From assembly GCF_024298765.1 (NCBI RefSeq), contig NZ_CP101210.1: a stretch of DNA of 64,000 bases. The stretch is one strand, 5' to 3'. Source of the DNA: Escherichia coli (GTDB lineage: Bacteria; Pseudomonadota; Gammaproteobacteria; Enterobacterales; Enterobacteriaceae). The notes under the pieces are model-generated. The model was not told where the DNA came from, did no database searches, and saw only the letters and a program-made list of their open reading frames with translations. How positions within the stretch are numbered: position 1 is the stretch's first letter; each line of letters starts with the position of its first letter. Position numbers and translations under genes: made by a program. Below, piece after piece: positions 12,933 to 45,206 of this stretch.

Positions 12933-13008
12933 GCCCGGATAGCTCAGTCGGTAGAGCAGGGGATTGAAAATCCCCGTGTCCTTGGTTCGATTCCGAGTCC
13001 GGGCACCA
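12933..13008 (+). tRNA. pheU: tRNA-Phe (anticodon GAA)
   Basis: 76-nt sequence GCCCGGATAGCTCAGTCGGTAGAGCAGGGGATTGAAAATCCCCGTGTCCTTGGTTCGATTCCGAGTCCGGGCACCA; anticodon loop ATTGAAAAT; identical to remembered E. coli tRNA-Phe; pheU assignment from yjdC neighbourhood. Confidence 0.97.
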
Positions 13009-13205: not shown

Positions 13206-14468
13206 ATGGCACTGACTGACGCAAAAATCCGGGCTGCAAAGCACACTGACAAGGCTTATAAACTCACTGACGGGGCTGGCATGTTCCTGCTGGTACATCC
13301 TAATGGTTCCCGTTACTGGCGTCTCCGTTATCGTATTCTGGGTAAGGAGAAGACTCTGGCACTTGGTGTGTATCCAGAAGTTTCTCTCTCCGAAGCTCGT
13401 ACAAAACGGGATGAGGCCCGAAAACTGATTTCAGAGGGGATTGACCCTTGCGAACAGAAAAGAGTTAAAAAAGTAGTCCCTGATTTACAGCTCTCTTTTG
13501 AACATATTGCACGACGCTGGCATGCCAGTAATAAACAATGGGCACAATCACACAGCGATAAAGTACTCAAAAGCCTCGAGACACACGTTTTCCCCTTTAT
13601 CGGCAACCGGGATATCACAACACTCAATACCCCGGACCTGCTTATCCCTGTTCGTGCTGCAGAAGCAAAACAAATTTATGAAATCGCCAGTCGTCTGCAG
13701 CAAAGAATATCTGCTGTAATGCGTTACGCCGTACAGTCTGGCATCATCAGATATAACCCGGCTCTGGATATGGCTGGTGCATTGACCACGGTAAAACGCC
13801 AGCATCGCCCCGCTCTGAATCTTTCACGTCTGCCTGAACTTCTGTCGCGTATTAACAGTTATAAAGGTCAGCCTGTCACCCGGCTTGCTGTTATGCTGAA
13901 TTTACTGGTTTTTATTCGCTCCAGTGAACTCAGATATGCCCGCTGGGCTGAAATTGATATTGACAATTCAATGTGGACTATTCCAGCCGAACGCAAACCT
14001 CTGCCAGGGGTAAAATTCTCACACCGGGGCTCCAAGATGCGAACACCACATCTTGTGCCACTCAGCAAACAGGCTGTAGCCATACTGACAGAACTTCAGA
14101 CATGGGCTGGTGAAAATGGTCTGATCTTTACGGGAGCACATGACCCGCGTAAACCAATCAGTGAAAATACCGTAAATAAGGCCCTCAGAGTGATGGGGTA
14201 TGACACAACCAAGGAAGTCTGTGGCCATGGATTCCGGGCGATGGCGTGCAGTGCATTGATTGAATCAGGTTTGTGGTCCCGCGATGCTGTGGAACGTCAG
14301 ATGAGCCATCAGGAGCGTAATGGTGTACGTGCTGCGTATATCCATAAAGCAGAACATCTGGAAGAACGTCGACTGATGCTACAGTGGTGGGCAGATTTTC
14401 TGGATGCGAACAGAGATAAGGGTATCAGCCCGTTTGAATATGCAAAGATTAACAATCCATTAAAATAG
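13206..14468 (+). CDS. int: P4-type tyrosine integrase (genomic-island integrase)
   Basis: 420-aa ORF immediately 3-prime of tRNA-Phe; N-terminal MALTDAKIRAAKHTDKAYKLTDGAGMFLLVHPNGSRYWRLRYR typical of P4/CP4-57-type integrases; C-terminal catalytic region with H-x-x-R and terminal Tyr region. Confidence 0.9.
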   Translation: MALTDAKIRAAKHTDKAYKLTDGAGMFLLVHPNGSRYWRLRYRILGKEKTLALGVYPEVSLSEARTKRDEARKLISEGIDPCEQKRVKKVVPDLQLSFEHIARRWHASNKQWAQSHSDKVLKSLETHVFPFIGNRDITTLNTPDLLIPVRAAEAKQIYEIASRLQQRISAVMRYAVQSGIIRYNPALDMAGALTTVKRQHRPALNLSRLPELLSRINSYKGQPVTRLAVMLNLLVFIRSSELRYARWAEIDIDNSMWTIPAERKPLPGVKFSHRGSKMRTPHLVPLSKQAVAILTELQTWAGENGLIFTGAHDPRKPISENTVNKALRVMGYDTTKEVCGHGFRAMACSALIESGLWSRDAVERQMSHQERNGVRAAYIHKAEHLEERRLMLQWWADFLDANRDKGISPFEYAKINNPLK

Positions 14469-14919: not shown

Positions 14920-17900
14920 ATGGATGAAAATGCTTTAGGGTTTGCCTCATACTGGCGCAACTCGCTTGCGGACGCTGAGTCAGGAAAGGGCAGTTTTGAA
15001 CGGAAAGACGCCAAAAATTTCACTCATTGGCATGGGATAGCGGCGGGACGTCTTGACGAAGCGATTGTCAGTAAATTTTTTAAGGGAGAAAAAGACGATG
15101 TCGAAACGGTCGATGTCATCTTGCGCCCAAAAGTTTATTTCCGGTTACTGCAGCATGGTAAGGACCGTTCTGCAGGTGCGCCTGATATTGTTACCCCGAT
15201 AGTGACGCCAGCCTTGCTAAGCCGTGAGGGTTTTTTATATCCGACGCCAGCGACCTCCATTCCCAGAGACCTGCTTGAACCTTTGCCAAAAGGAGCATTT
15301 TCGATTGGTGAGATTGGGCAGTATGACAAATACAAGACGACCCATACCACGTTCTCTATCAACTTTGATGACAGCGTTGATAAGACTGCCGAAACGGATG
15401 AAGAACGGGAAGAACGATATGCAGCCTTGCAGCAGGAGTGGCGTCAATATCTGGATGATTCAGAGAGGCTGCTGAAGAACGTTGCCGGCGACTGGATTAA
15501 AAATCCTGAGCAATATGAACTCGCTGAGCACGGTTATATTGTTAAAACGGCGCAATCTGGCGGTGCCAGTTTCCATATCCTTTCTCTTTATGATCACCTG
15601 CTTGTTTGCAATAAGGATGTGCCGCTCTTCAATCGATTCGCCTCGCGAGAGGTTCATGCTGCAGAGTCTTTGCTGGCCCCTGGAGCAAAATTCAGCGACA
15701 GGCTTGGACACTCCGGAGATAAGTTTCCGCTGGCAAAGGCTCAGCGCGATGCCTTAAGCCATTTTCTGGATGCTAAACATGGCGATATCCTTGCTGTTAA
15801 TGGCCCTCCTGGAACCGGAAAAACCACGCTGGTGCTTTCTATCATCGCCACGCAGTGGGCCAGAGCGGCTCTCGAAAAATCTGAGCCTCCGGTTATTATC
15901 GCGACTTCAACGAATAACCAGGCTGTAACGAACATTATTGAGGCATTCGGGAAAGACTTTTCGCAAGGTTCAGGTGCGATGGCCGGGCGATGGTTGCCAG
16001 AGCTGAAAAGCTTCGGCGCTTATTTTCCCTCAGGCAGCCGTAAAGCTGAAGCAGCCAAAAAATATCAAACTGAAGATTTCTTCAACCAGGTTGAGTCAAA
16101 AGAGTATGTAGAAGATGCACTGCTGTTTTATCTGGAAAAGGCTAAGGCAGCCTTTCCTGAAAAAGAGTGTTCATCCCCTGAAAAGGTCATTGAACTCCTG
16201 CATGGTCAGTTGGCAGCAAAATCCGAGCAACTGATAAGACTGAACGCAACATGGCAAAAGTTAAGCCAGATTCGGGCTGCGCGTGAGCTTATTGCTAATG
16301 ATATTGAGCAATATCTCAATAATTTAAATAAATTACTTTCCGGACAAGAACAAAAAATCACTCTACTGAAGAGTGCTAAAACGGAATGGAAAAAATATCG
16401 CGCCGGTGAATCACTGATCTATTCATTATTTTCCTGGCTTCCGGCGGTTCGCAGTAAGCGACAGTACCAAATACAGCTGTTTCTCGAAGATAAATTAGGT
16501 GCGCTGATTGCAGGAAATCAATGGTCTGATCCTGAAACTATCGAACGTAATATTGATGGGCTGCTCAATTCCGCTGAGCGCGAGCAAACAACATACCGGC
16601 AGCAGATTGACTCCGCCCATGAAATCATTCTTAAAGAACAGCAGGCGGTTCAGGAGTGGCAGAGACTGGCTCTTGATTTAGGGTATGAGGGCGACGAGGA
16701 ACTGAGCTTCTCACAGGCCGATGAACTGGCTGATACGCAGATTCGCTTCCCTGCATTTTTACTGACGACTCACTACTGGGAAGGTCGTTGGCTGATGGAT
16801 ATGGCCAGCATTGATGATCTGCAGGAAGAGAAGAAGAAAAAAGGCGCTAAAGGGGTAACCGCCCGTTGGCAACGTCGAATGAAACTCACTCCATGTGTGG
16901 TGATGACATGCTATATGCTGCCCGGCAATATGCAGATAAGTGAGCACAAAGGACAGCGTAAATTCGAGAAAAGTTATTTGTATGATTTTGCCGATTTACT
17001 CATTGTCGATGAAGCCGGGCAGGTGCTTCCTGAAGTGGCTGCTGCCTCGTTTGCATTAGCTAAGAAGGCATTAGTGATTGGCGATACGGAGCAGATCCCG
17101 CCAATATGGAGTATTGCTCCTGCGATTGATATCGGTAACATGCTGGCGGAAAAAATTCTGTCTGGCAGTACGCAAGAAGAGATTACCGAGAAATATACGG
17201 CAATCGCAGACCTTGGTAAAAGTGCCGCATCTGGCAGCGTTATGAAAATAGCGCAGTTTGCTTCGCGCTATCAATATGATCCCGAACTGGCTCGTGGTAT
17301 GTACCTATATGAACACCGCCGGTGCTACGACAATATTATTGGATACTGTAATACGCTCTGCTATCACGGTAAGTTGTTGCCTAAAAGAGGGCGTGAAGAG
17401 AGCAATTTAATGCCCGCAATGGGGTATCTCCATATTGATGGTAAAGGAGAGCTGGCAAGTAGTGGAAGTCGATATAATTTGCTTGAGGCTGAAACGATAG
17501 CGGTCTGGTTGGCAGAGAACCAGCAAAATATTGAAGCGCATTACGGTAAATCGCTTCATGAAGTTGTCGGTATTGTGACGCCTTTTAGCGCTCAGGTATC
17601 CACTATCAAACAGGTGCTGGGCAAACAAGGTATCAGTACGGGCACGAATGAAAAGTCGCTCACAGTGGGCACCGTGCACTCTCTTCAGGGAGCGGAAAGA
17701 GCGATTGTGATATTCTCGCCAGTCTATTCAAAACATGAAGACGGCGGGTTTATTGATAGCGATAACAGCATGCTGAATGTTGCAGTCTCCCGTGCGAAGG
17801 ACAGTTTTCTGGTCTTCGGCGATATGGACCTGTTTGAGGTCCAGCCAGCCTCATCGCCACGGGGATTACTGGCAAAATACCTCTTTGAGTCAGAGAAGAA

Positions 17901-18435
17901 TGCGCTCTCTTTTGATTATAAAGAGCGTAAGGATTTAAAAACCGCCGGGACCAAAATCTACACACTTCATGGTGTGGAGCAACATGATAATTTCCTGAAT
18001 CAGACATTTGAAAATACCAGTAAACACATCACGATAGTTTCTCCATGGCTGACCTGGCAAAGGCTGGAGCAAACCGGTTTTCTTGATTCCATGATTGCGG
18101 CGTGTTCACGTGGAATTAACGTCACGATAGTCACTGACAGAAGCTACAACACTGAACATAATGATTTTGAGAAGCGAAAAGAGAAGCAGCAGAACTTTAA
18201 AGCGGCGCTGGAGAAACTGAATGCGCTGGGTATTGCTACAAAGCTGGTAAACCGTGTTCATAGCAAAATTGTTATTGGTGATGATGGTTTGCTGTGCGTG
18301 GGATCGTTCAACTGGTTTAGTGCGACACGGGAAGCGCGATATGAACGATACGATACATCAATGGTTTATTGCGGTGATAACCTGAAGGGTGAGATTGAGG
18401 CTATTTATAATAGTCTTGAGAGGCGGCAGGTTTAG
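14920..18435 (+). CDS. large SF1 (Upf1/DNA2-like) helicase fused to C-terminal PLD-family (HKD) nuclease; candidate single-gene anti-phage defence protein (Mokosh type II-like)
   Basis: 1171-aa ORF; Walker A GPPGTGKT at 15802..15825; Walker B-like LIVDEAGQ; motif VI-like [17 protein letters not shown]-terminal HxKxxxxD motif HSKIVIGDD at 18259..18285; first cargo gene after integrase. Confidence 0.7.
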
Positions 18436-18543
18436 AGCAGGAATGGTGAGTAGCCATCTTACCGATCGTTTTCGAGCGTAAGATGGCTGAATGGAATGGC
18501 TATTATTGCACAGTCCTTAATTATAACATTCATACCGACATGA

Positions 18544-20043
18544 TTATCTTCTGTCCGGAAGAATCAGAGGCTGTGGTTTCAGACTGTCTGCCGGTACATT
18601 CCTGTCTCCGTTAAAAACAATAACGGGTTCATTATCTTCGTCTGTCAGCGGATTGAATGGCGGTATATTTTCAGTACGAATGCCGGTCAGCCACTGAAAA
18701 ATACCTGCGAAATGACGGGCACTGATTTTTCTGCTGACGGACTGATGAGACGTGATGTCACTGGCGGTAATAATCAGGGGAACGCTGTAGCCTCCTTGTA
18801 TATGGCCATCATGATGAACAGGATTAGCACTGTCGCTGACCGACAGACCATGGTCAGAAAAGTAAAGCATGGCAAAATGACGGGAGTGCCGGCGAAGGAT
18901 ACCATCAAGCTGACCGAGAAAGTTATCCAGTTTACTGATGCTGGCGAGGTAACAGGCAATCTTTCGGGGATACTGCTCCAGGTAATGATTCGGCCAGGAG
19001 TTAAGTCGGTCACACGGATTCGGATGAGAGCCAATCATGTGCAGGAATATCACCTTCGGAGAGGATTTATCCGCCAGTGCACGTTCTGTTTCCTGTAACA
19101 ACAACATGTCATCCGTTTTACGGGAAGCAAAGCTGCCTTTCTTGAGGAAAACGGTATGCTCCGCATCAGAAGCAATAACAGAGATGCGTGTATCATGCTC
19201 CCCCAGTTTTCCCTGATTGGATATCCACCATGTGCTGTATCCTGCTTTTGCTGCCAGCGCCACCACGTTGTTGCCGGAGTCAGGGTTCTGCTCATAGTCA
19301 TAAATCAGTGTCCGGCTCAGGGAAGGTACGGTACTGGCTGCTGCCGATGTATAGCCGTCAATAAATAAACCGGGAGCCGTATTCAGCCATGGTGTGGTTG
19401 GCACGGGATAGCCATATACCGACATATAATCCCTGCGCACACTCTCACCAGTAACGATAACAATCGTGTCATACAACGGTGTTCCCGGCAGGATTTTCCA
19501 GTTGTCAGCCCCGTGCTGACTCAGTTGTTTATAACGCTGCATTTCACGCAATGTGTCAGTTGTTCCCACAACAATTCCTTTAACCATCCGCAACGGCCAG
19601 CTGTTTACAGAGCATAATACGAACAGCAGCAGTGCCAGCCAGTTACGGTGACCGCGGTGGTGTGTCCGCCAGAAAATCACCATGAATACCAGAATCGCGG
19701 CACTGACCAGAAAATGATAAACAGGAATCATCCCGGTAAACTCTGCAGCCTCATCAGCCGTGGTCTGCAGCAACGCGACAATAAAACTGTTGTTGATTTT
19801 ACCGTACGTCATACCCGCAGGCGCATACAGTGCACAACAGAACAGAAATAACAGCGTTGTAATGGATGTGAGGGTATTTCTGTGTGCAAGGAGCAGAAGG
19901 AGAAACAGAAGCAGCACATTTCCTGTGGCATTCTTCTCAGTGTATCCGCATGCAATTGTGGTTATCACAGAAATAACAAAAAAGAATAAAAACAATAAAA
20001 TCCGGGGTGTGTCGCCCGGACAAAACAGTTTTCTGATATTCAT
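18544..20043 (-). CDS. phosphoethanolamine transferase / sulfatase-superfamily inner-membrane protein (EptA/MCR-like family)
   Basis: 499-aa ORF; N-terminal multi-TM region then periplasmic domain with VTGESVRRDYMSVYGYP (cf. GE[T/S]AR nucleophile motif of EptA/MCR), HMIGSHPNP and FSDHG metal-site motifs. Confidence 0.7.
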   Translation of the reverse strand: MNIRKLFCPGDTPRILLFLFFFVISVITTIACGYTEKNATGNVLLLFLLLLLAHRNTLTSITTLLFLFCCALYAPAGMTYGKINNSFIVALLQTTADEAAEFTGMIPVYHFLVSAAILVFMVIFWRTHHRGHRNWLALLLFVLCSVNSWPLRMVKGIVVGTTDTLREMQRYKQLSQHGADNWKILPGTPLYDTIVIVTGESVRRDYMSVYGYPVPTTPWLNTAPGLFIDGYTSAAASTVPSLSRTLIYDYEQNPDSGNNVVALAAKAGYSTWWISNQGKLGEHDTRISVIASDAEHTVFLKKGSFASRKTDDMLLLQETERALADKSSPKVIFLHMIGSHPNPCDRLNSWPNHYLEQYPRKIACYLASISKLDNFLGQLDGILRRHSRHFAMLYFSDHGLSVSDSANPVHHDGHIQGGYSVPLIITASDITSHQSVSRKISARHFAGIFQWLTGIRTENIPPFNPLTDEDNEPVIVFNGDRNVPADSLKPQPLILPDRR

Positions 20044-20224
20044 CGGAGTATATCGACAACATTATTATGAAGAGAACAGGATAATAAAAATCAGAAATTA
20101 TCTGTAAAACAGATAACAGACAACCCTGCAGCAATAGACTGCAGGGTGTTTCTGTTTAATTGCAGAAGATATACAATTATATTAATTACAGAATATTCGT
20201 GATTATCTCTCGGGAACAGTGTTG

Positions 20225-20965
20225 TCAGAAGTTATAAGTCACACCAAGCATGATGTCATGACTTTTAACATCAACTTCTGACTTATATTTATCGCCCCAC
20301 TCGTCCTTGTAACTCACACTGCTGTCACCTGCATCAAGATAGCGATAGCTGAGGTCCAGAGCGATATCCGGGGTTACGTCATAGCGGACACCCGCGCCAA
20401 GGTTCCATGCGAAGTTGTCAGCAGAGCCTGAACGTGACAACGATTCGCGACCACTGCTTCCGTACTCATAATCCCAGGTACTGATACCGGTTGTTTTCTG
20501 GTGAATTCTGGCGTAGCCAATCCCTGCAGATATCCAAGGTGTGAATGCGCTGTCATTCCGGAAGTCATAGTACGCATTCAGCATTAGTGTGTTGACTGAC
20601 ACCTCATTCTTCAGGTCATCACGCCAGTAACCACCTGACCAACTGTCTTTATCTACGTTATACTTCGAATCAGCTTTTCCACGAGCGTAAAACTCCAGTT
20701 CTGTACGAACCGGAATACTGAACTGCGGATAAAAATCATAACCAGCCGCGATACCACCACTGAATACCGTATCATGGTCATCGCCGCCTTTATACTTTGA
20801 CGTTTCTTCCTCATCTCCTGACAGGAAACGCTGGTCTGAAAGTGACACCACAGAGGTACCGGCTTTACCGGTCAGATAAAAACCGCTTTTACCTTCCTCA
20901 GCACCTGCATTTGCTGCAAATACACAGGCTGCGGCCACCACTGAAACAGCAAAAACCTTTTTCAT
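20225..20965 (-). CDS. outer-membrane beta-barrel protein (OmpA-like transmembrane barrel family)
   Basis: 246-aa ORF; Sec signal peptide MKKVFAVSVVAAACVFAANA; alternating amphipathic beta-strands; C-terminal aromatic residue (GVTYNF) typical of OMPs. Confidence 0.7.
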   Translation of the reverse strand: MKKVFAVSVVAAACVFAANAGAEEGKSGFYLTGKAGTSVVSLSDQRFLSGDEEETSKYKGGDDHDTVFSGGIAAGYDFYPQFSIPVRTELEFYARGKADSKYNVDKDSWSGGYWRDDLKNEVSVNTLMLNAYYDFRNDSAFTPWISAGIGYARIHQKTTGISTWDYEYGSSGRESLSRSGSADNFAWNLGAGVRYDVTPDIALDLSYRYLDAGDSSVSYKDEWGDKYKSEVDVKSHDIMLGVTYNF

Positions 20966-21452
20966 TTCAATTATCTCCGTTATTGCTCCGTTGCTGCAAG
21001 CAGTACTCAGTGCATTTTAAAACCCGCCATGCTATAGCCTCAATCGAATAAAATCGATCGAATCGATCGATGATATCGATCGTCATTAACCAGAAATTTT
21101 TATCGTATTCAGTCAGCACAGACACAACAAATGCATGCCATGCAGGCAGCCATGCCCCGTCGCGACAGATGGTAGCAGTGGGCTGGCGAAGAGCAGAATT
21201 AATAAAATTTGTTTATTCTGTCAGGAGATAAGGTGTCACCTGTTCATGAACACAATTAAGGAAGAGACATACATGAGCTGACTGGCAGTCCAGAGTGCAT
21301 GCGGTTACAAGCCGGAAAGGTGAACCGGTATAACCAGTGAGCAGAGTTTGTGAAGGGGGGATATAAAAAAGCCCACTGCATGGCTGCGGGTAAAGAGTCA
21401 GTTATTTCCGGCGTTTTTCAAGGTAGTTGTCGCCTGATGTAATAAAATTACG

Positions 21453-21790
21453 TTATGCCGCTTCTTTTTCTGGATTCAGATAAACTGCCTGAATGAGTTC
21501 CCAGTCACGCAACTGTTTGCTCCAGCGCTCAGGATGACGCTTGCGAGCTTCGCGATAAACTTTTTTTCTGGCTTCCAGTATTTGTGCATCAATTCCGCGA
21601 TGGCGTTCATCCGGAGTAACATACTTAATACCGCTGTGCTTGTGTTCCAGGTTGTACCATTACGTGAACTTGCTTAACCAACTTCTGGCTTCATCTATGG
21701 TTCGAAAACCATTCTCCGGCCACCATGAACAATACTTAATCGTCCGGAAGAGCGATTCGGAATAAAGAAGTGTTACTGGCAGTTCTTTCA
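21453..21790 (-). pseudogene. remnant of IS3-family transposase OrfB (C-terminal part, in-frame stop)
   Basis: Minus-strand translation gives ...GFRTIDEARSWLSKFT*WYNLEHKHSGIKYVTPDERHRGIDAQILEARKKVYREARKRHPERWS..., typical integrase-core C-terminus, interrupted by a stop; no intact ORF. Confidence 0.5.
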
Positions 21791-21820
21791 TCGCATCAGT
21801 GAAAACCAGCAGGGCACTGC

Positions 21821-22162
21821 TCACCAGAGCAACACAGGAAAGTGAACCCGAACAAAAGTTCCTGTACCATTTTCTCCCAGCAGACGTGAGGCTTGTTCCA
21901 GTGACGCTGGTATACGTCCCAGCCGGACATCAAGTGCGCCGATGGCTATTGCCTGAAATCGCATCGTACAGCAAATCACCAACAGGACACCGACAGACAT
22001 TAAAGGTAACCCCCTGTAATCCAGTAGTTCCGACAGCCAGCGGTCATTTAGGGAGTCAGAAAACCAATCGCCAGAATCGTGCCCGGAAAGGCATAACCCA
22101 GCGACGCCCCTCTCATCACACCGCGCCTGAACAGTGGCATAGCGTTGAGGAATTCCGGGCAT
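21821..22162 (-). pseudogene. possible fragment of an ABC-transporter permease gene
   Basis: 113-aa ORF contains permease-like EAA-loop-type segment (IPASLEQASRLLG) but is far too short and lacks context. Confidence 0.25.
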
Positions 22163-22291
22163 TCCAGACTACGAGCAGACTGACAAAAATTACGACAAAG
22201 CGTTGAAGGAAGCCAGCGCGCGGACTGACAGGACTTTACCATAAAAACACAGGCTAACCGCGCCTGCGTTTTTAATGACGGATAAACAGAA

Positions 22292-24271
22292 TCAGGTGCC
22301 GATTATGCCGCCGTCGGCTTTTACGATAACGACAGTTGAGGAGCGCGGACGACCAGCCTTATCGCCGTCAGGCCAGCTTGATACTGCCGTCGGATGCTGC
22401 GGATCGCTAAGCCCTTCGCTTGGCTCGCCAGGGTGCTGGATGTTAATAAACAGCGTCCGGTTATCCGGAGTGAACGCGATGCCGGTGATTTCGCAGCCGC
22501 GCGGGCCGGTCAGGAAGCGGCGGAACTCATTGGTACCGGGGATCGTCGCCACCATCTGGTTGTTGCCCATGCCTTTGTAATCTTTACTATTGATGGTTGA
22601 TGACGACACGTCGGTCTGGATCCATAGCACGCCGCGGTGATCGAAGCTCAGGCCATCGGCGCTGCCGAATTCCGCCCCCTTCATGCTGCCTTTGGTTTCC
22701 GGTTTGTCCGTATCGGTGCGACCGCCCATCACAAGAATATCCCAGGCAAACTGCAGCGCGGTCGGGTCACCGTTATGCTCCAACCAGTGAATGATGTGGC
22801 CGTAAACGTTTTTGGCGCGCGGGTTGGCCGCATCCACTGGCGCTTTTCCTTCCTTACCGCGATCGCTGTTGTTGGTGAGCGTGCAGTAAACGCTGCCGGC
22901 GTGATATGGATCGACCGCAATCCACTCCGGGCGGTCCATTTTAGTGGCCCCCACGGCGTCTGCCGCCAGACGGGTTTTAATCAACAGGTCGCCCTGGTTT
23001 TCAAACCCTTTACTGGCGTCGAGCCCATTTTGTCCGAACACCAGCGGTAGCCACTCGCCTTTGCCGTCGTCGTTAAATTTCGCCACGTACAGAGTGCCTT
23101 TTTCCAGCAGGTGCATGTTGGCTTTGCGATCCTGCGGGTTGAATTTTCCTTCCGAGACAAATTTATATATGTATTCGAATTTCTGGTCATCGCCCATATA
23201 GACCACAACGCGGTTATCCGGGGCAATTGTCACCGCTGCGCCTTCGTGTTTGATGCGACCAAGCGCGGTGTGCTTGCGCGGCACTGAATGCGGATCGTAT
23301 GGATCGATTTCCACCACCCAGCCGAAGCGGTTCGGCTCGTTCGGCGTGGCGTCGACGCTGAACCTTTTATCCACTTCGTTCCAGCGGTAAGAGTCGTCGC
23401 TCCCGCTGATACCGTAACGTTTTTCCAGCGGGTTCATCTCTGCTTTTTTTACGAAAATATCGGACCAGTTCTCTTCACACGTCAGATAGGTGCCCCACGG
23501 CGTAAATCCGTTGGCACAGTTCTGCATGGTGCCGAGAATGATTTCGCCTTTCGGATCGTCAACTGTTTGCATCAGTGGGTTATGCAGCGCCGGACCGGTG
23601 ATTTTCATCGGCGTGTTAACGGTGATGCGGCGTGCGAAAGATGACGGGCGCACCACTTCCCAGCCCAGGGGCACTTTTTTTACTTCAATGACCGACACGC
23701 CCATCGCGTTCTGGCCTTTAAGAGCTTTATCGGCGCTCCAGTTGGCATCGCCATCTTTAAACAGTAGACCGTTATCGATGTATTCATGGTTTATGGCAAG
23801 CAGGCCGTGATCGGAGCTGTTCCCGCCCTGCGGCAGGCTAAACCACGCCATGCCGTCGTGGTGCATCCCGGCCTGCGCCGCCTGTTCTTCCGTGGTGTTG
23901 CTACCGTCGGTTTTAAAAACCGGCAGATTTCCGGCAATCCCGGTGGCGTCGCCCCATTTGTAGAAGGGCTTCGCGATGTATCCTTCCGGCACGATAACGG
24001 TATCTTCCGTGGAAACCGGCAGGCTGGTGAAACCGAGCGTCGTCGCTTTGCCGAGGTTACCGCTTGCTTTGGAGACCACTTTCGCCAGCGCGTTTTCCTG
24101 TTTCAGCAGAAATGGGAACGCTGCCGCGGCACCGGCGACCGTGCCTGCCTGTAACAGACGGCGGCGTGACAAATAGACTTCCGCCACCTGCGAAAACGCG
24201 CGGTTATCGCTCGGGTTACTGATTTCTTCACTATGCTCACGTTTGAATAAAGTTTTTAACGGTCTGCCCAT
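22292..24271 (-). CDS. phoX: Tat-secreted PhoX-family alkaline phosphatase (DUF839-like)
   Basis: 659-aa ORF; twin-arginine signal (SRRRLLQAGTVAGAAAAF); overall resemblance to PhoX family by memory. Confidence 0.6.
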   Translation of the reverse strand: MGRPLKTLFKREHSEEISNPSDNRAFSQVAEVYLSRRRLLQAGTVAGAAAAFPFLLKQENALAKVVSKASGNLGKATTLGFTSLPVSTEDTVIVPEGYIAKPFYKWGDATGIAGNLPVFKTDGSNTTEEQAAQAGMHHDGMAWFSLPQGGNSSDHGLLAINHEYIDNGLLFKDGDANWSADKALKGQNAMGVSVIEVKKVPLGWEVVRPSSFARRITVNTPMKITGPALHNPLMQTVDDPKGEIILGTMQNCANGFTPWGTYLTCEENWSDIFVKKAEMNPLEKRYGISGSDDSYRWNEVDKRFSVDATPNEPNRFGWVVEIDPYDPHSVPRKHTALGRIKHEGAAVTIAPDNRVVVYMGDDQKFEYIYKFVSEGKFNPQDRKANMHLLEKGTLYVAKFNDDGKGEWLPLVFGQNGLDASKGFENQGDLLIKTRLAADAVGATKMDRPEWIAVDPYHAGSVYCTLTNNSDRGKEGKAPVDAANPRAKNVYGHIIHWLEHNGDPTALQFAWDILVMGGRTDTDKPETKGSMKGAEFGSADGLSFDHRGVLWIQTDVSSSTINSKDYKGMGNNQMVATIPGTNEFRRFLTGPRGCEITGIAFTPDNRTLFINIQHPGEPSEGLSDPQHPTAVSSWPDGDKAGRPRSSTVVIVKADGGIIGT

Positions 24272-30143: not shown

Positions 30144-31006
30144 AGTATGTCTTTATTGAAAAACATCAGGCTGAGTTCAGCATCAAAGCAATGTGCCGCG
30201 TGCTCCGGGTGGCCCGCAGCGGCTGGTATACGTGGTGTCAGCGGCGGACAAGGATAAGCACGCGTCAGCAGTTCCGCCAACACTGCGACAGCGTTGTCCT
30301 CGCGGCTTTTACCCGGTCAAAACAGCGTTACGGTGCCCCACGCCTGACGGATGAACTGCGTGCTCAGGGTTACCCCTTTAACGTAAAAACCGTGGCGGCA
30401 AGCCTGCGCCGTCAGGGACTGAGGGCAAAGGCCTCCCGGAAGTTCAGCCCGGTCAGCTACCGCGCACACGGCCTGCCTGTGTCAGAAAATCTGTTGGAGC
30501 AGGATTTTTACGCCAGTGGCCCGAACCAGAAGTGGGCAGGAGACATCACGTACTTACGTACAGATGAAGGCTGGCTGTATCTGGCAGTGGTCATTGACCT
30601 GTGGTCACGTGCCGTTATTGGCTGGTCAATGTCGCCACGCATGACGGCGCAACTGGCCTGCGATGCCCTGCAGATGGCGCTGTGGCGGCGTAAGAGGCCC
30701 CGGAACGTTATCGTTCACACGGACCGTGGAGGCCAGTACTGTTCAGCAGATTATCAGGCGCAACTGAAGCGGCATAATCTGCGTGGAAGTATGAGCGCAA
30801 AAGGTTGCTGCTACGATAATGCCTGCGTGGAAAGCTTCTTTCATTCGCTGAAAGTGGAATGTATCCATGGAGAACACTTTATCAGCCGGGAAATAATGCG
30901 GGCAACGGTGTTTAATTATATCGAATGTGATTACAATCGGTGGCGGCGGCACAGTTGGTGTGGCGGCCTCAGTCCGGAACAATTTGAAAACCAGAACCTC
31001 GCTTAG
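30140..31006 (+). CDS. IS3 OrfB (integrase core, DDE)
   Basis: 288-aa ORF with rve-type catalytic core (WAGDITYL...[15 protein letters not shown]...[10 protein letters not shown]...). Confidence 0.85.
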
Positions 31007-31036
31007 GCCTGTGTCCATATTACGTGGGTAGGATCA

Positions 31037-31685
31037 CTAAGCCAGGAATTAAGTCATTTAAAGATATTTCAAATTCACTGGCAATCGTATCTAATCCTTC
31101 CTTATCAATAGATTCAAGCCATAAATTATAATCAATAGGAAGAAGCAACGGATGAGTAAAGTTCAATCTATTTACTAAAGATGATTTAGTATACTCATCA
31201 TTACTTAGCTCTCCAATAAATTCATTATTTATAGAAACAGCATAGTTCTTTATATATGCTGCTCTGTGCAATTGTGACCATGCGATTTTAAACTCTACAT
31301 AAACCTTTTCAGTTTCATCTGCAATGTCTTTCATTTTTATAAAATGAATATCGAAAATATCACCAAGTTCTTCTAAATATGTTTTATATTCTACACCTAT
31401 TGTTTGTTCAGGATCGAAACCGATACCAATAGTAATTACATTATTCAGATCCCCATTATGGACTAGAGATCTAAATCCATCTATGCGCCTGTTCCCCATA
31501 GCTTCTAAATATATAGGATCACACTGCTCACGGTCTAATATTTGTTGAAGATAAAATAATGCAATTAAAATAGTAGTCTTGCCCGCGCTGTTTGGCCCCA
31601 ATAGTAATGTTACAGGTGCAAAATCAATTTCCTGCCGCTCTCTAACAGATCTGAAATTTTCAAGTACAAGTTTAGTTAATTTCAT
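31037..31685 (-). pseudogene. AAA/ABC-type ATPase gene (OLD/Abi-like N-terminus) truncated at 3-prime end by IS3
   Basis: N-terminus MKLTKLVLENFRSVRERQEIDFAPVTLLLGPNSAGKTT (Walker A); ORF runs into the IS3 terminus after about 215 codons. Confidence 0.65.
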
Positions 31686-31693
31686 AATGAACC

Positions 31694-32800
31694 TTACATG
31701 AAATATTTATTCGATAGGTTTGATGCTAAAAGTTGAAGTTGCATTGCGCTTTTATCATAAATGCTTAGTCCTTTTTTTATTTTTTTATAAATAATCTCAT
31801 ACTCATCTTGTAGATGCTTAGGTGGGATTAATATCTCTATATTCTGCAATTCCTGTGCATTAATATTAGCCATGCCAACAATACTTTTACACATATTCAT
31901 CAATGTGATTTTGCCATGGATGGAATTAAGATACCCTGAAATATAGTAGTTATTTCCGATAGAATTAGGTCTAACGCGGATTAAATATCCAGCAAATGCC
32001 ATAGGCCTGTCTTCTTCATACACAGCTGTTTTACCAACAAGTTCCTTACTGTTAGTACGATTGAAAAGAAGATCGCCTTCTTTAACCAAATATTTATCCT
32101 TTTCTTTTACACTGAGATCAAGATATTTTAAATCTGTAAAATCCCACCTACCTTGATATGTTATATTACCCATCCGTAATATAGGATATTCACCAGAATC
32201 AATAGAGGCTTTTGCTGAAGTTCCATAATTTACTGAATCAACCAAGTCGCGAATCGTTCCTTTCGGGAAACGATGTATGTTGTTTGCAGGAGTTCCAAAC
32301 ATCTCTAGAAACTTAGCCCGCAAAAAATCATCAGCCAGTTTGATGGCTTGTTCGCGTTTTTGGCGTATACCCTCAGCTTTATCGAGAAGATCCACAATTC
32401 GTTTCTGCTCTTCAAAAGGTGGTAATTTAATAAATGTATCATAGAGATCGTCTCTATTTAATCCAGGAATACTTGTGGTAATCGTTTTCTTAGTGAGATC
32501 AATTCCGCTCAGAATATAAAACAAGTATCGGAGATCTAACTTATTATTATCTTTGATCTCAACGTAATAAGCAGTATCAATGATCCAACCTCCGTCAGGA
32601 GCCCAGGTAATAGCACCAACGCTGCCTTTGCGACCAATAATTATCGTGGGATAGCTGCAAAGCGTTTTATCGTGGTTGCCGACAATTCCTGAACTACCAA
32701 AAACATGGACACTTCCATTCGATACTCGCTGATCAGCTTTTAATGCTTTTCCGTAGTGAACATTAATAACATCCCCTAACTTCACCATCGCCGAACTCAC
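31694..32800 (-). CDS. hsdS: type I restriction-modification specificity subunit HsdS
   Basis: 368-aa ORF overlapping hsdM stop by 4 nt; two target-recognition-domain-like halves; operon position. Confidence 0.8.
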   Translation of the reverse strand: MSSAMVKLGDVINVHYGKALKADQRVSNGSVHVFGSSGIVGNHDKTLCSYPTIIIGRKGSVGAITWAPDGGWIIDTAYYVEIKDNNKLDLRYLFYILSGIDLTKKTITTSIPGLNRDDLYDTFIKLPPFEEQKRIVDLLDKAEGIRQKREQAIKLADDFLRAKFLEMFGTPANNIHRFPKGTIRDLVDSVNYGTSAKASIDSGEYPILRMGNITYQGRWDFTDLKYLDLSVKEKDKYLVKEGDLLFNRTNSKELVGKTAVYEEDRPMAFAGYLIRVRPNSIGNNYYISGYLNSIHGKITLMNMCKSIVGMANINAQELQNIEILIPPKHLQDEYEIIYKKIKKGLSIYDKSAMQLQLLASNLSNKYFM

Positions 32801-34431
32801 AGCATACCCTCCAGCTCATCCAGATCCGCCAGAATTTCTTTTTCCAAATCTTTTAAGCGCTTTAGTATCACCTTCGGATCTTCATATTCCTCCGCCTGAT
32901 ACACCACTTCTTTATAACGATTGATAGAGAGATCGTATTTCTGCGCAGCAATATCCGCTTTCGGTACAACAAACGCCGCCTGCGTGCGATCTTTAAAATC
33001 AACGCCAGCATCAATCCCTTCCGGGTACTGCTGTTTAAGCAACGAGGCTAACTTCTCACCCATAAAGTTATCAACCGGTAGCCCGCGTAAAGTACGGTAA
33101 TGCTTCCAGCTTGCCAGCAGATGCGGCAGATCGTTGTCTTTTATCGGGTTGCGCTTATCATCCAGGCTGTAGCCATCATTTTGCAGATCGTAGAACCAGA
33201 CCTCATCCGTTTGACCGCCTTTGGTAAAGATCAGGATCGCCGTCGCCACGCCAGCGTAAGGTTTAAATACACCAGAAGGCAGATTGATCACCGCTTCCAG
33301 TTGGTTATCTTCCACCAGCGTTTTGCGAAGTGACTGGTGCGCCTTGCTGGAGCCAAACAGCACGCCCTGCGGCACGATAGTGGCACTGCGCCCGCCCACT
33401 TTCAGCATTTGCAGAATACGCGCCAGGAACAGCAGTTCGGTTTTTTTGGTTTTCACCATTGCCGACAACGTGGAGTCGATATCTTCCTCGTCCAGTGAAC
33501 CGGTAAAAGGCGGGTTCGCCAGAATCAGATTGAAAGCGTTTTTACTGGCCTGAGGGAAGTTAGTGCTGAAGCTCTGGCTCATGGTGTCCTGATAGTGAAT
33601 ATCCGGCGCTTCCACACCGTGCATAATCAGGTTCATAGCGGCGATACGCAGCATGGTGGTATCAAAATCGTAACCGTGGAACATATTGTTATCTACATGG
33701 TTACGCCACGGTGTCAGCAGATCGCCGGTAAAGATTTTTTGCTCTTCCAGTTCGCCACGTTCGTTGGTGCCAATCTCAGTATGGATGGATTCCAGCGAGC
33801 TGTACTTCTCCAGAAGATATTCATAGCTGGTTGCCAGAAAACCACCGGTGCCACAGGCGGGATCACAAATCGTCTCGCCGCGGGCCGGGTTCGGCTCCAT
33901 CATTTCAACCATCGTGCGGATAATGTGGCGCGGCGTGCGGAACTGACCGTTGATTCCGGCAGTGGTCAGCTTGCTTAACAGGTATTCGTAAAGGTCGCCT
34001 TTGGTGTCGCCACGATCCAGCGGCAGGTTTTTGATCACCTCAACCGCTTTGGTCAGTAATGACGGCTTAACAATCTCCAGACGAGCATCTTTCATAAAGT
34101 TGCCCAGCAGCGTCACCTTCGACGCATCGGCCTGGCCAAGCTGACGAAAATGCTGGAATACGCCATCGCGCACCACTTCCATCATCTCATCCGAGCCAAG
34201 ATTGCTATAGTGACTGAAACGGAACTCCTGCTGTTCTGGCGCAAAACGCGGTTTAAAATCAATTCCCGCGATTTGTTTACGCTTCTCGTCGCGTTGTTCC
34301 TGGGTATCCAGCATCCGGGAATACATCAGATAGGTGATCTGTTCGATTACGGTCAGCGGGTTGGTGATACCACCCACCCAGAAATCTTCCCACAGGCCGT
34401 CGATTTTACTTTTTAAGTCACCAGTGATCAT
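32797..34431 (-). CDS. hsdM: type I restriction-modification N6-adenine DNA methyltransferase HsdM
   Basis: 544-aa ORF; SAM-binding [10 protein letters not shown] and catalytic NPPF motifs. Confidence 0.9.
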
Positions 34432-42581: not shown

Positions 42582-43026
42582 GAAATGTTCCTTTTCAAAC
42601 CCTGTTGGATTTTGTCAAGACGGTACAGACACAGTAAAGCGCGCATCAACACCTGAAAGGTACGATACAAACACAAGTTACAAACAATAAGAACGGAAGG
42701 ACAATTAATCAGTGAGGAATAATAACTAAATTAACCAAAAGAATGTTACTGACAATACCACCAATACTTAAATAGCAATATATTAATTAATGTAAGAACA
42801 GATGCCCGGTAAGACATATACACAATACATCCACAAACACACTCTTTTCATTAAATAAATCACCTGATTAAACCATGAAAGTGTGATGTAAGTCAAAATT
42901 ACTGACACAATCAATTGATAATGATTATCTCTATCATTATCGTGAAATTCGAGAATGAAAGGAGAAGTAGTCATTATAAGTCTTTTATAAATCGTCATCA
43001 TCATAGTAAAGTAGAACACTTTTTAT

Positions 43027-43485
43027 ATGAGTTACTATATGAAAATATACTGGACAAGAAAAAACATTCCTGAACTTTCAGCACTTCCACCTTCATTAAG
43101 AAAGAAAAATTTTACTGACGCATATAATGCTGCATCTTCCCATATCGAATACTGGATAGGTGCTGGCGTCTCATTTATCTCGATGATGATTTTATTCAAA
43201 GTATATGACTTTCTTTTACCCGCCCAAGATACTTTCCCGGGTGATATCATAAGAAGTTTATGTGTTGTGTGTCCATCCATATTAATCTGGTTTCAGTTTT
43301 CGGTATATGTCATGAGGAAATATTACAGACATATTCTGGAACGAGGTAAGGAAACCGAAACCATTTCAGAAAGGTTGATACGTGAGGCTGATACACGAGA
43401 ATATGAATTATGGCGTCCGGCCCATCGCTTTTTCTCCATTATTCTATTAGTTTGCATTCATTCACTGATAACAACTATAAAATAA
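43027..43485 (+). CDS. hypothetical small membrane protein at edge of microcin cluster
   Basis: 152-aa ORF with 2-3 hydrophobic helices; no recognizable family. Confidence 0.4.
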   Translation: MSYYMKIYWTRKNIPELSALPPSLRKKNFTDAYNAASSHIEYWIGAGVSFISMMILFKVYDFLLPAQDTFPGDIIRSLCVVCPSILIWFQFSVYVMRKYYRHILERGKETETISERLIREADTREYELWRPAHRFFSIILLVCIHSLITTIK

Positions 43486-43584
43486 AAGTTATGGCTGTTC
43501 TGATACAGGAAAATAAACGTTCATTCTATGGTTACCTCTTCCTGTTATATAAAAGAATTTTAAACAACAAGTAAGGGAATATAA

Positions 43585-44271
43585 ATGGAAATAACAAAAA
43601 ATAAAAATGCAACTATAAAAAAACAGTCATCAGCCGGCTGCTTTTCAATGTTTACTTTATCATTTTCCATTACCTTTATTCCTGCATTTCTTACAAACAG
43701 GCAGGAACTTATATCCAGGGGGCTTCTTGTTCCAGCATTATTTCTTGCTGAATTTCTAATTCTTGTTCCACTGTATTTTATTTTCTTCCGAAAAAGAGAA
43801 GGATTAGGAAGAGGTTCTTTTCGACTGGATGTTTTTTTTACTCTTTTCTCTTTAATAATGATTATTCAGTTATTTGTCCCTTATCTGCTGGCAGTGAGGA
43901 AAACGGAAGAATGGATGATCTCGCAAATGTCTTTTTCCGGGGCCATTTTATGGATTAATATATTTTCTTCCGTACTTCTTGTTCCTGTATATGAAGAGAT
44001 TGTATTTCGAGGGTGTCTTTTTAACTCTTTTAAATTCTGGTTTAATGACAATATTTACATCTCTGCTATTGTAACATCAGTCATATTTTCTGCATTACAT
44101 CTACAATATACTGACTTTCGTACATTTTTGATGCTCTTTCTGATATCGTTAGTTCTTATCAGTGCAAAAATAAAGTCGAATGGCCTGTTAATGCCCATAT
44201 TACTTCACATGGCGATGAATGCAGTCATAACAGGAATACAATATACGTTACAATATCACATAACAGTCTGA
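43585..44271 (+). CDS. CPBP-family (CAAX protease/Abi) intramembrane protein, MceF/McmM-like microcin accessory protein
   Basis: 228-aa polytopic ORF with CPBP motifs EEIVFRG, FSALH and HMAMN; such genes accompany class II bacteriocin/microcin loci. Confidence 0.7.
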   Translation: MEITKNKNATIKKQSSAGCFSMFTLSFSITFIPAFLTNRQELISRGLLVPALFLAEFLILVPLYFIFFRKREGLGRGSFRLDVFFTLFSLIMIIQLFVPYLLAVRKTEEWMISQMSFSGAILWINIFSSVLLVPVYEEIVFRGCLFNSFKFWFNDNIYISAIVTSVIFSALHLQYTDFRTFLMLFLISLVLISAKIKSNGLLMPILLHMAMNAVITGIQYTLQYHITV

Positions 44272-44644
44272 AATTGTTATTATGAGATATCTATAACACC
44301 TGAAGTTGGAAAAAGAAGCAAATAATTCCTTATAAGGAATCGTTTACTAATATATTTAGATGATCTCATATTTGTTTATGATATACATCTGATTAAGATA
44401 TAATGGATTATAAATTACTCAAAGGTGAACAAATATCTTCGCCTTTTCTCGTAGAAAGAGACTTGAAACTTATAATACATCTATATAAACGTGATTTAAA
44501 TCACGATTTGCAGTAAAAGCAATTGGTATAATTCATTGGTATTACTATTATTTCATCTATTGCACGAACTATTTTACAACAATAAAAAAGATATACAAAC
44601 AGCAAGAAGTAAAAATATTCGGATAAATAAAAATTTTTGCTACC

Positions 44645-44881
44645 TTGGTTTCTATAGTCTTTATTTCTAAGTTTTTCATAAGCACTCAAAGACTCATGTA
44701 TAGGGACGGTTTAATAATGAAACTATTTTTTTATTTCTCGTTGTTCTTTATAATACAACTTATAAATTCAGACTTAGACACATTAACCCTTTATCTTTTC
44801 ATAAAGAAAATAATTCTTTCGTTACTTGCGAGTGTACTGTTTTTATTTGTTTTATCTTTCTTTAATAAAAAGAGGAAATAA
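44645..44881 (+). CDS. small hydrophobic protein, candidate microcin immunity protein
   Basis: 78-aa ORF (alternative start at 44717 gives 54 aa) ending 1 nt before the microcin-like precursor gene; two predicted TM helices. Confidence 0.45.
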   Translation: MVSIVFISKFFISTQRLMYRDGLIMKLFFYFSLFFIIQLINSDLDTLTLYLFIKKIILSLLASVLFLFVLSFFNKKRK

Positions 44882-44882
44882 C

Positions 44883-45206
44883 ATGAGAAATATAACAACC
44901 GATGAACTTGCTTTAATACATGGTGCAGGATTAGATAAAGATGCATCCGTTGCAATAGGTACTGCGGCTGGTGGTTTTTTAGGTAAAGCAACAAAAATCC
45001 CTGGTGCGGATATAGCAGGAAGTGCAATTGGAGGATATATTGGAGGAGTTATTGCTGATGGTTCAAATAGGACAATAACAATACCATCAAACGGTATTAA
45101 CTATAATCCGGGTATAGGACTTGGAAGTTTTAATCCAAACTACAATGGAGGTTTATTAAACTCAGGATTTAACTCATCAACATCCTCTTCTAGTAGTGGA
45201 AGTTGA
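44883..45206 (+). CDS. double-glycine-leader class IIb (siderophore-type) microcin precursor, identity unassigned
   Basis: ORF track 44826..45206; start at ATG 44883 (RBS aagagg) gives 107 aa; leader MRNITTDELALIHGA-G parallels MchB leader; Gly-rich core; Ser-rich C-terminal tail NSSTSSSSSGS. Confidence 0.65.
   Translation: MRNITTDELALIHGAGLDKDASVAIGTAAGGFLGKATKIPGADIAGSAIGGYIGGVIADGSNRTITIPSNGINYNPGIGLGSFNPNYNGGLLNSGFNSSTSSSSSGS

Follow-up and report, generated by a model that had tools for sequence, protein, structure and literature searches.

A predicted OpgE-like phosphoethanolamine transferase, YjgX, encoded beside an Hra-family adhesin gene on tRNA islands of Escherichia coli

OpgE (YbiP) is the phosphoethanolamine (PEtN) transferase for osmoregulated periplasmic glucans (OPGs) and represents class IX in the 11-class scheme of a 2023 review (PMC10525099). 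YjgX, the subject of this study, is missing from that scheme, and the review is not among the papers which mention yjgX. The gene is on record as a pseudogene of strain K-12 (b4575) and, together with an adhesin gene, appears uncommented and uncharacterised on the published maps of two islands, as a 'sulfatase ORF' beside tia on SE-PAI and as ORF4 beside hes on LAA. Here, we analysed a stretch of 64,000 nucleotides from Escherichia coli (contig NZ_CP101210.1, assembly GCF_024298765.1; hereafter termed the window), which carries the same cassette with a full-length copy of yjgX:

18544-20043, minus strand: yjgX-type PEtN transferase, intact, 499 aa (Pfam, NCBIfam, BLASTP, alignment, AlphaFold and Foldseek)
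20225-20965, minus strand: Hra-family (Hra1/Hek/Hes/Tia) beta-barrel adhesin-type outer membrane protein (OMP), 246 aa, with signal peptide (Pfam OMP_b-brl and Opacity)

On balance, we favour the reading that YjgX is an inner-membrane, periplasm-facing PEtN transferase of the OpgE-like branch of the alkaline-phosphatase superfamily, that its acceptor is most probably a periplasmic glycan other than lipid A, and that its gene forms a cassette with that of an Hra-family adhesin. The literature we searched holds no characterisation of the YjgX subfamily and no explicit statement of the near-obligate cassette with Hra-family adhesin genes; yjgX turned up only as a neutral site and as one false-positive match in a screen, and a search for the accession WP_001313263 returned nothing.

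Family placement and active site of YjgX

Both open reading frames (ORFs), separated by a gap of 181 bp, had already been delimited in the original prediction for this DNA, and the ORF list as well as the RefSeq/PGAP annotation of strain 26561, a 100%-identical genome, give them the same coordinates, under the names 'phosphoethanolamine transferase' (WP_001313263.1, 499 aa) and 'outer membrane protein' (WP_000755103.1, 246 aa). Over 1191 bp, the transferase gene shares 91.3% DNA identity with the K-12 pseudogene, and judged by its sequence the 499-aa ORF is an intact allele of yjgX. Its product matches the Pfam family Sulfatase (PF00884; residues 193-446, E 1.3e-36), in keeping with a sulfatase/alkaline-phosphatase fold, and weakly EptA_B_N (PF08019; 23.6 bits against a cut-off of 22.3), which covers the N-terminal membrane domain; hydrophobic segments in the N-terminal part support such a domain as well. 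The protein is thus laid out as an N-terminal helical membrane domain (about residues 1-177) followed by a periplasmic sulfatase-fold domain (about 190-499), and the original view of a membrane-anchored PEtN transferase of the broad EptA/OpgE superfamily is well founded.

Employing BLASTP, we compared YjgX with the five intact K-12 members of this family:

OpgE: 236 bits, 31% identity over 493 aa, E 3e-75, membrane domain included
YhbX: 105 bits, query residues 192-425 only
EptC: 94 bits, query residues 193-462 only
EptB: 55 bits, query residues 194-429 only
EptA: 45 bits, query residues 195-410 only, 18-22% identity

The score between YjgX and OpgE was the highest between any two of the K-12 paralogue types compared, the match was reciprocal among the K-12 paralogues, and a neighbour-joining tree placed the YjgX clade beside the OpgE clade, far from EptA, EptB and EptC. 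All NCBIfam cut-offs were missed by YjgX, namely those of the models for CptA (106.7 against 404 and 82 against 900), EptA (57 against 561 and 38 against 660), EptB (50 against 493) and MCR (18-35 bits against cut-offs of 1075-1250). The original prediction had framed the protein as EptA/MCR-like, with a hint at polymyxin relevance, and had itself named clustering with OpgE/YhbX-type enzymes as one part of the outcome that would speak against this framing. Such clustering is what the tree shows and, with 236 bits to OpgE against 45 to EptA and at most 35 to the MCR models, we abandon the framing. By homology, YjgX can be taken as a genuine PEtN transferase, integral to the membrane and belonging to the OpgE-like branch. 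It is not an orthologue of OpgE, as yjgX lies on a tRNA island and opgE at a core locus convergent with ompX. Among species-representative genomes, ompX was found just downstream of and convergent with an opgE-type match in 46 of 80 loci; these 46 are OpgE orthologues by identity and organism, and YjgX is 31-33% identical to OpgE orthologues of other genera.

The motifs GESVRRD and FSDHG are both present in the 499-aa protein, as originally noted, but the former had been taken to be the site of the nucleophile, with the usual Thr replaced by Ser. This interpretation is wrong: the motif carries the metal-binding Glu, and the Thr nucleophile is kept at T238. A HMMER alignment to MCR-1 places GESVRRD opposite GETARAD, which contains Glu246 of MCR-1, and T238 (AAAS-T-VPS) opposite the nucleophile Thr285 (GTS-T-A). 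A published account of MCR-1 gives the role of nucleophile to Thr285 and that of proton acceptor to Glu246, and places His395, Asp465, His466 and His478 in the active site (PMC10525099). The predicted catalytic set is complete in YjgX, with E200, T238, H340, D397, H398 and H411 in the places of MCR-1 E246, T285, H395, D465, H466 and H478; the first five are invariant in 45 of 45 aligned family members, and the last is His in 43 of them. The same 45-sequence alignment shows GES in OpgE, YhbX and EptC and GET in EptA and EptB, so that the Ser is a marker of non-lipid-A subfamilies and not a substitution of the nucleophile.

The best solved structure by sequence is the catalytic domain of E. coli EptC (5zzu/6a82; E 1.2e-17); MCR-1 reaches no more than about 4e-4. 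A confident AlphaFold (AF2) model of YjgX, built from 36 homologues, reached a pLDDT of 89.2 and a pTM of 0.79 and consists of a bundle of helices at the N terminus, a long helix as bridge and an alpha/beta catalytic domain, with helices at residues 14-31, 39-53, 57-80, 108-127, 135-145 and 149-177. Foldseek matched this model to the catalytic domain of E. coli EptC, and to full-length MCR-1 (9nww) and Neisseria EptA (NmEptA, 5fgn) over about 550 alignment columns.

The adhesin-transferase cassette

The beta-barrel OMP gene which the original prediction placed next to the transferase gene is confirmed by a Pfam match to OMP_b-brl (E 5.9e-22), which like the Sulfatase match of the transferase is far outside chance, and a further one to Opacity; the best sequence match in the PDB is Opa60. 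Its 246-aa product shares 62-64% identity with proteins annotated by PGAP as 'invasion outer membrane protein Tia', in line with the roughly 65% identity published between Tia and Hra1/Hes within the Hra family, which comprises Hra1, Hra2, Tia, Hek and Hes (PMC5539235). On this comparison, the protein belongs to the Hra adhesin family. The detection primer hes_det2 matches the gene with one mismatch, and the hes-specific primer hes_det1 has no site in it with four or fewer mismatches, indicating that the allele is probably not hes; an Hra1/Hek-like allele is the probable assignment, while the names given to the protein in databases are generic.

How tightly the two genes belong together was assessed with a junction query of 481 bp, composed of 100 bp from the 5' end of the transferase gene, the spacer and 200 bp from the 3' end of the OMP gene. 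Of 5426 complete E. coli genomes, 1468 contain this junction unbroken, about the same number as carry a full-length transferase gene (1450). The OMP gene followed by the transferase gene is a conserved two-gene cassette, situated at the integrase-proximal end of P4-integrase tRNA islands (pheU, pheV, leuX and others). The identical cassette lies at pheV in the strains APEC E19035 and Sanji (L001 and L109), and K-12 has its yjgX pseudogene at leuX. The integrase-proximal end of the island in the window comprises the following features:

12933-13008, plus strand: tRNA-Phe (pheU), integration site of the island (ARAGORN)
13206-14468, plus strand: P4-type tyrosine integrase (Pfam Arm-DNA-bind_3, Phage_int_M and Phage_integrase; NCBIfam PRK09692)
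14920-18435, plus strand: MkoC, SF1 helicase/PLD nuclease of the type II Mokosh anti-phage system, 1171 aa (PADLOC, 1694 bits over full length; Pfam AAA_11, AAA_12 and PLDc_2)

In the matching genome of strain 26561, cutA, dsbD and yjdC (dicD/yjdC) lie upstream of the tRNA-Phe gene, and the presence of dsbD and yjdC identifies the locus as pheU. With a tRNA gene and an adjoining P4-type integrase gene beside the cassette, and the cassette itself recurring at several tRNA loci, the originally proposed location on an island can be regarded as established.

The cassette has outlived exchanges of its adhesin allele. In the tia-linked cassette (L018), the transferase is 96% identical to that of the window and the OMP only 64%; the corresponding synonymous divergence (dS) is 0.10 for the transferase gene and 1.57 for the OMP gene (20225-20965 against L018 5001-5747), a difference of about 15-fold. 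This contrast suggests that the OMP gene has been replaced or recombined inside a stable frame, as in a hotspot of recombination or allele replacement, and unusually high variation of tia has been observed independently (PMC7371111). In more divergent form, the same order of OMP gene and transferase gene, about 210 bp apart, recurs on a Salmonella contig and three metagenome contigs. These Salmonella-type copies share 56-58% identity with the transferase and 53-54% with the OMP in local BLASTP alignments (51% over full length for three of the OMPs), and their island context differs, with a gene for a YeeP-like GTPase upstream and DUF932 or GntR genes downstream. The different position within the island argues that the cassette moves as a unit. 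There are limits to the linkage: the OMP gene is missing beside a 57%-identical copy (L015), a 52%-identical plasmid paralogue and chromosomal relatives of 50% and 39% identity, and OMP homologues of 46% and 37% identity occur without the enzyme. The original prediction had also raised the possibility that the enzyme modifies the adjacent OMP. A relation of the enzyme to this OMP gains support, of an indirect kind only, from the very tight and deep synteny.

The enzyme gene is under constraint and is often found truncated. Between E. coli alleles of yjgX, dN/dS is 0.18-0.21, with similar values within the Salmonella-type clade, and a ratio of about 0.2 points to purifying selection. By megablast, 2913 of the 5426 complete E. 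coli genomes have some match to yjgX and 1450 (about 27%) a full-length one; many of the remaining matched genomes, K-12, DH5alpha and ATCC 11303 among them, retain a 5'-truncated remnant covering 78% of the gene, and some copies are broken by insertion sequence (IS) elements. A paralogue of about 52% identity and 511 aa resides on large conjugative or virulence plasmids (IncF/IncI), e.g. at L002 5908-7443 (pRM10466-1) and on about 120 other E. coli plasmids, where its neighbours are epeA, a thermonuclease gene and a DUF2569 gene and no Hra-type OMP gene is present. A scan of one genome per species yielded relatives of at most 39% identity, and beside those with 31-39% there was no Hra-type OMP gene; the YjgX clade proper thus seems to be restricted to mobile elements found in E. 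coli, Salmonella and their close relatives.

Several further relatives deserve mention. Twelve loci in the 31-39% range have heterogeneous neighbours, with only scattered glycan-related genes, namely one for an acyltransferase, one for a glycosyltransferase and galU (judged from the translations, with no family search), and one relative of 66% identity (P0012) is without a contig on record. The 43%-identical homologue P0026 (L021 2316-4622) points away from a type IV pilin gene, beyond which FimB follows, and adjoins a second sulfatase-family gene, a layout that recalls pilin modification with PEtN by Neisseria PptA. An apparent clade of 42% identity, seen on a 'plasmid' of E. coli of 6.6 kb (H233/L025), was rejected, as it proved to be tia and yjgX in a copy riddled with frameshifts. 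Several small plasmids of 4-10 kb carry PEtN transferases of about 30-33% identity (L026, E. kobei, 6.2 kb; L027, A. baumannii, 9.6 kb; H237, H243 and H245) and resemble in this respect the pSFxv_2/lpt-O arrangement of Shigella flexneri. Among the plasmid matches to YjgX, two Neisseria records were counted at E < 1e-30, which makes a relationship to PptA no more than a lead, and no Shigella record was found.

Two signals in the spacer, the first two of the following sites, suggest that the two genes are expressed separately:

20081-20108, minus strand: predicted sigma-70-like promoter, TTTACA-16-TATTAT, 10/12, directly upstream of the transferase start (consensus scan)
20123-20147, minus strand: terminator-like hairpin, 10-bp stem with 6 GC pairs, tail TGTCTGTTAT, just past the OMP stop codon (consensus scan)
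21014-21043, minus strand: weak promoter-like site, predicted, 9/12, upstream of the OMP gene (consensus scan; such sites are no more numerous than in shuffled sequence)

The outer stem halves of the hairpin are kept in L018 and L019, with variation in the inner stem and loop. The -35 region of the transferase promoter is kept between alleles; the -10 element is kept in the tia-linked L018 and reads TATTGT in L019. A comparable hairpin with a T-run can be read by eye, without a scan, in the spacer of the Salmonella-type cassette L013. A terminator-like hairpin followed by a promoter makes separate transcription with possible read-through likelier, as a prediction, than a tight operon, and the OMP and transferase genes are probably separate transcription units. 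An Rfam scan of 18000-22400 gave nothing near any gathering score.

Acceptor and rival readings

What, then, might YjgX modify? Following the donor and ping-pong mechanism of its family, the enzyme would take PEtN from phosphatidylethanolamine onto Thr238, with the metal held by E200, D397 and H398, and would then hand it from Thr238 to an acceptor at the periplasmic face of the membrane. The likelier acceptor would be a periplasm-exposed glycan, e.g. an OPG-like glucan, the core of lipopolysaccharide (LPS) or another envelope sugar. We infer specificity for a non-lipid-A glycan because the closest relative modifies glucans and the lipid A enzymes are the most distant members of the family. 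As its acceptor is most probably not lipid A, YjgX should not behave like mcr. Several points weigh against this reading: specificity cannot be read from an identity of 31% to OpgE; with the core opgE already present in E. coli, a role in OPGs alone would duplicate an existing function; the neighbour-joining tree was built without S. flexneri Lpt-O, which acts on O-antigen, and Neisseria PptA, which acts on pilin; the promoter and terminator calls are consensus matches only; and truncated copies alone in about half of the matched genomes indicate that yjgX is dispensable.

A strict OpgE isozyme, which would transfer PEtN onto OPGs while its linkage to an adhesin gene were mere co-inheritance on the island backbone, appears rather improbable to us. 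OpgE is indeed the closest characterised homologue of YjgX over full length, and the cassette always sits one slot from the integrase, as expected of an inherited backbone block. However, YjgX is no closer to OpgE of E. coli than to the OpgE orthologues of other genera, which argues for an old paralogue, the core opgE is retained beside ompX, and the Salmonella-type cassette lies elsewhere in its island, between the YeeP-like GTPase gene and the DUF932 gene, and thus moves as a unit. We regard it as about equally doubtful that the Hra-family adhesin and YjgX form a functional pair, in which the enzyme would add PEtN to the adhesin or to the surrounding glycan or LPS and thereby tune adhesion, autoaggregation or antibody recognition. 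If this were true, phenotypes ascribed to hes, tia or hek in native strains would be partly due to the transferase, and a functional link, if shown, would add a new case in which an OMP adhesin has a dedicated partner for modifying the envelope. Still less probable is a protein-directed enzyme in the manner of Neisseria PptA or Campylobacter jejuni EptC, modifying the adjacent Hra-family OMP or another surface protein. It would account for the OMP gene beside the transferase gene in essentially all E. coli genomes with a full-length copy and for an adjacency that outlasted both allele replacement of the OMP gene and deep divergence; the pilin gene adjoining the 43%-identical homologue fits as well, as does a truncated plasmid homologue annotated as 'Dca', the old name of PptA. 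Against it stand the plasmid paralogue and the L015 copy without an OMP gene, the two OMP homologues without an enzyme, and the literature searched, in which no modification of an Hra-family protein turned up. A further argument comes from HB101, a strain derived from K-12, where yjgX survives only as a pseudogene. In HB101, cloning of Hes by itself confers agglutination, aggregation and adhesion (PMC5539235).

The two remaining explanations carry little weight in our view. We consider it very unlikely that YjgX is a lipid A PEtN transferase of mcr type and lowers polymyxin susceptibility, even though it shares the overall fold and the catalytic residues of MCR-1 and EptA and is encoded on a mobile element. 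The match to EptA is confined to the catalytic domain, the scores with the MCR models stay far under their cut-offs, and the PLSDB resistance-gene calls flag mcr matches and leave plasmid copies and paralogues of yjgX unflagged. Moreover, yjgX is carried by about a quarter of the complete genomes of a species that is generally colistin-susceptible and, given this frequency and its place on the OpgE-like branch, it is a poor candidate for colistin resistance and should not be taken for a cryptic mcr. A K-12 yjgX deletion was negative for HNP-1 (PMC4808223), but the K-12 copy is a pseudogene and this result is thus uninformative on a polymyxin role. Least likely of all is a passenger gene in decay, devoid of function. 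In K-12 and numerous other genomes only the 5'-truncated remnant (about 78% of the gene) is left, and some copies are interrupted by IS elements, yet a dN/dS of about 0.2, invariant catalytic residues and full-length copies in 1450 genomes argue against a gene in general decay. We thus return to a PEtN transferase of the OpgE-like branch with a periplasmic glycan as most probable acceptor.

Island context and comparison with known systems

On the island of the window, the cassette is followed by a PhoX-family gene, IS debris, a pap operon, microcin M and ireA. The 23-nt 3' end of the tRNA-Phe gene, which is the published direct repeat of LAA, occurs as a single copy, with no second direct repeat found within the window, so that the far boundary of the island should lie beyond the window end. 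The PhoX-family alkaline phosphatase gene (22292-24271, minus strand; intact, 659 aa; Pfam E 6e-166) lies in a patch of 55-57% GC, adjoins a fragment of an iron ABC permease gene (21738-22196) and is absent from the otherwise identical cassette context of APEC E19035. The region 29000-49500 holds typical cargo of extraintestinal pathogenic E. coli, namely a DUF4198 gene, a remnant of a TonB receptor gene, many IS fragments, a pap-type fimbrial operon (PapG-like to PapC), microcin M (mcmA) with a degraded exporter gene, an inovirus Gp2-type gene and ireA. AT-rich patches were found at 43000-45000 (29-34% GC) and 31000-33000 (33-40% GC). PADLOC gave no match for the transferase or the OMP. The slot between integrase and cassette, occupied by MkoC here, holds shiA/sisA (coding for a TPR protein) in other islands or is empty, and looks like a variable cargo slot.

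Set against OpgE, YjgX shares the GES and HxxGSHPxxC motifs but is a paralogue with another location: opgE is a core gene convergent with ompX, whereas yjgX is island-borne and follows its Hra-family OMP gene on the same strand. The ompX gene, convergent with opgE in K-12 (L007 4451-6598) and in 46 of the loci L029-L108, encodes a small, 8-stranded beta-barrel OMP; transferases of the OpgE branch, both yjgX and opgE, hence adjoin small barrel OMP genes in different orientations, which could be a coincidence or an ancient duplicated block. EptC/CptA, the PEtN transferase for heptose-I phosphate, has the GES motif in common with YjgX, and its BLASTP match is limited to the catalytic domain. EptA and MCR-1 to MCR-10 show the same architecture and the same Glu/Thr/His/Asp-His set, but form another clade. 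S. flexneri Lpt-O/Opt, a plasmid-borne PEtN transferase for O-antigen, was compared through its published description only; it is mobile and of about 500 aa like YjgX, and its reported identity to 'sulfatase' proteins of E. coli is 31-38% (PMC3458804). As yjgX occurs in strains of diverse O types, a single sugar of the O-unit would be an unlikely acceptor.

The K-12 gene itself is found in the same layout as in the window, with a tRNA gene (leuX), a P4-type integrase (the intB pseudogene) and the transferase gene on the opposite strand. It lacks the first 300 bp or so and the upstream OMP gene, whereas the copy of the window is of full length with all catalytic residues. Being widely sequenced and correctly annotated at family level, yjgX is an ordinary gene in itself, and its tight linkage to an adhesin gene is the only mildly interesting point.

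It is through this linkage that YjgX, as a widespread and uncharacterised PEtN transferase subfamily of pathogenic E. coli, bears on published work. SE-PAI and LAA contain the same cassette as the window, with shiA/sisA instead of MkoC in the slot adjoining the integrase, and the OMP allele of the window is neither of tia type nor, probably, of hes type. For LAA, the published supplement gives the order int, sisA, a 53-aa ORF3 and ORF4 'sulfatase', PGAP lists sisA, the transferase and hes consecutively, and a diagnostic PCR primer for LAA module I lies inside yjgX (19368-19387, one mismatch). In a 2026 study of a 'delta hes-sisA' mutant of Shiga toxin-producing E. coli, the 5,485-bp deletion also took the PEtN transferase gene and part of atoS (PMC13340028), so that its virulence and biofilm phenotypes are not assignable to hes and sisA alone. 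Given the near-invariable linkage of yjgX to the virulence markers Hra1/Hek/Hes/Tia, deletion or cloning of these adhesins, as in this example, may silently include or exclude the enzyme.

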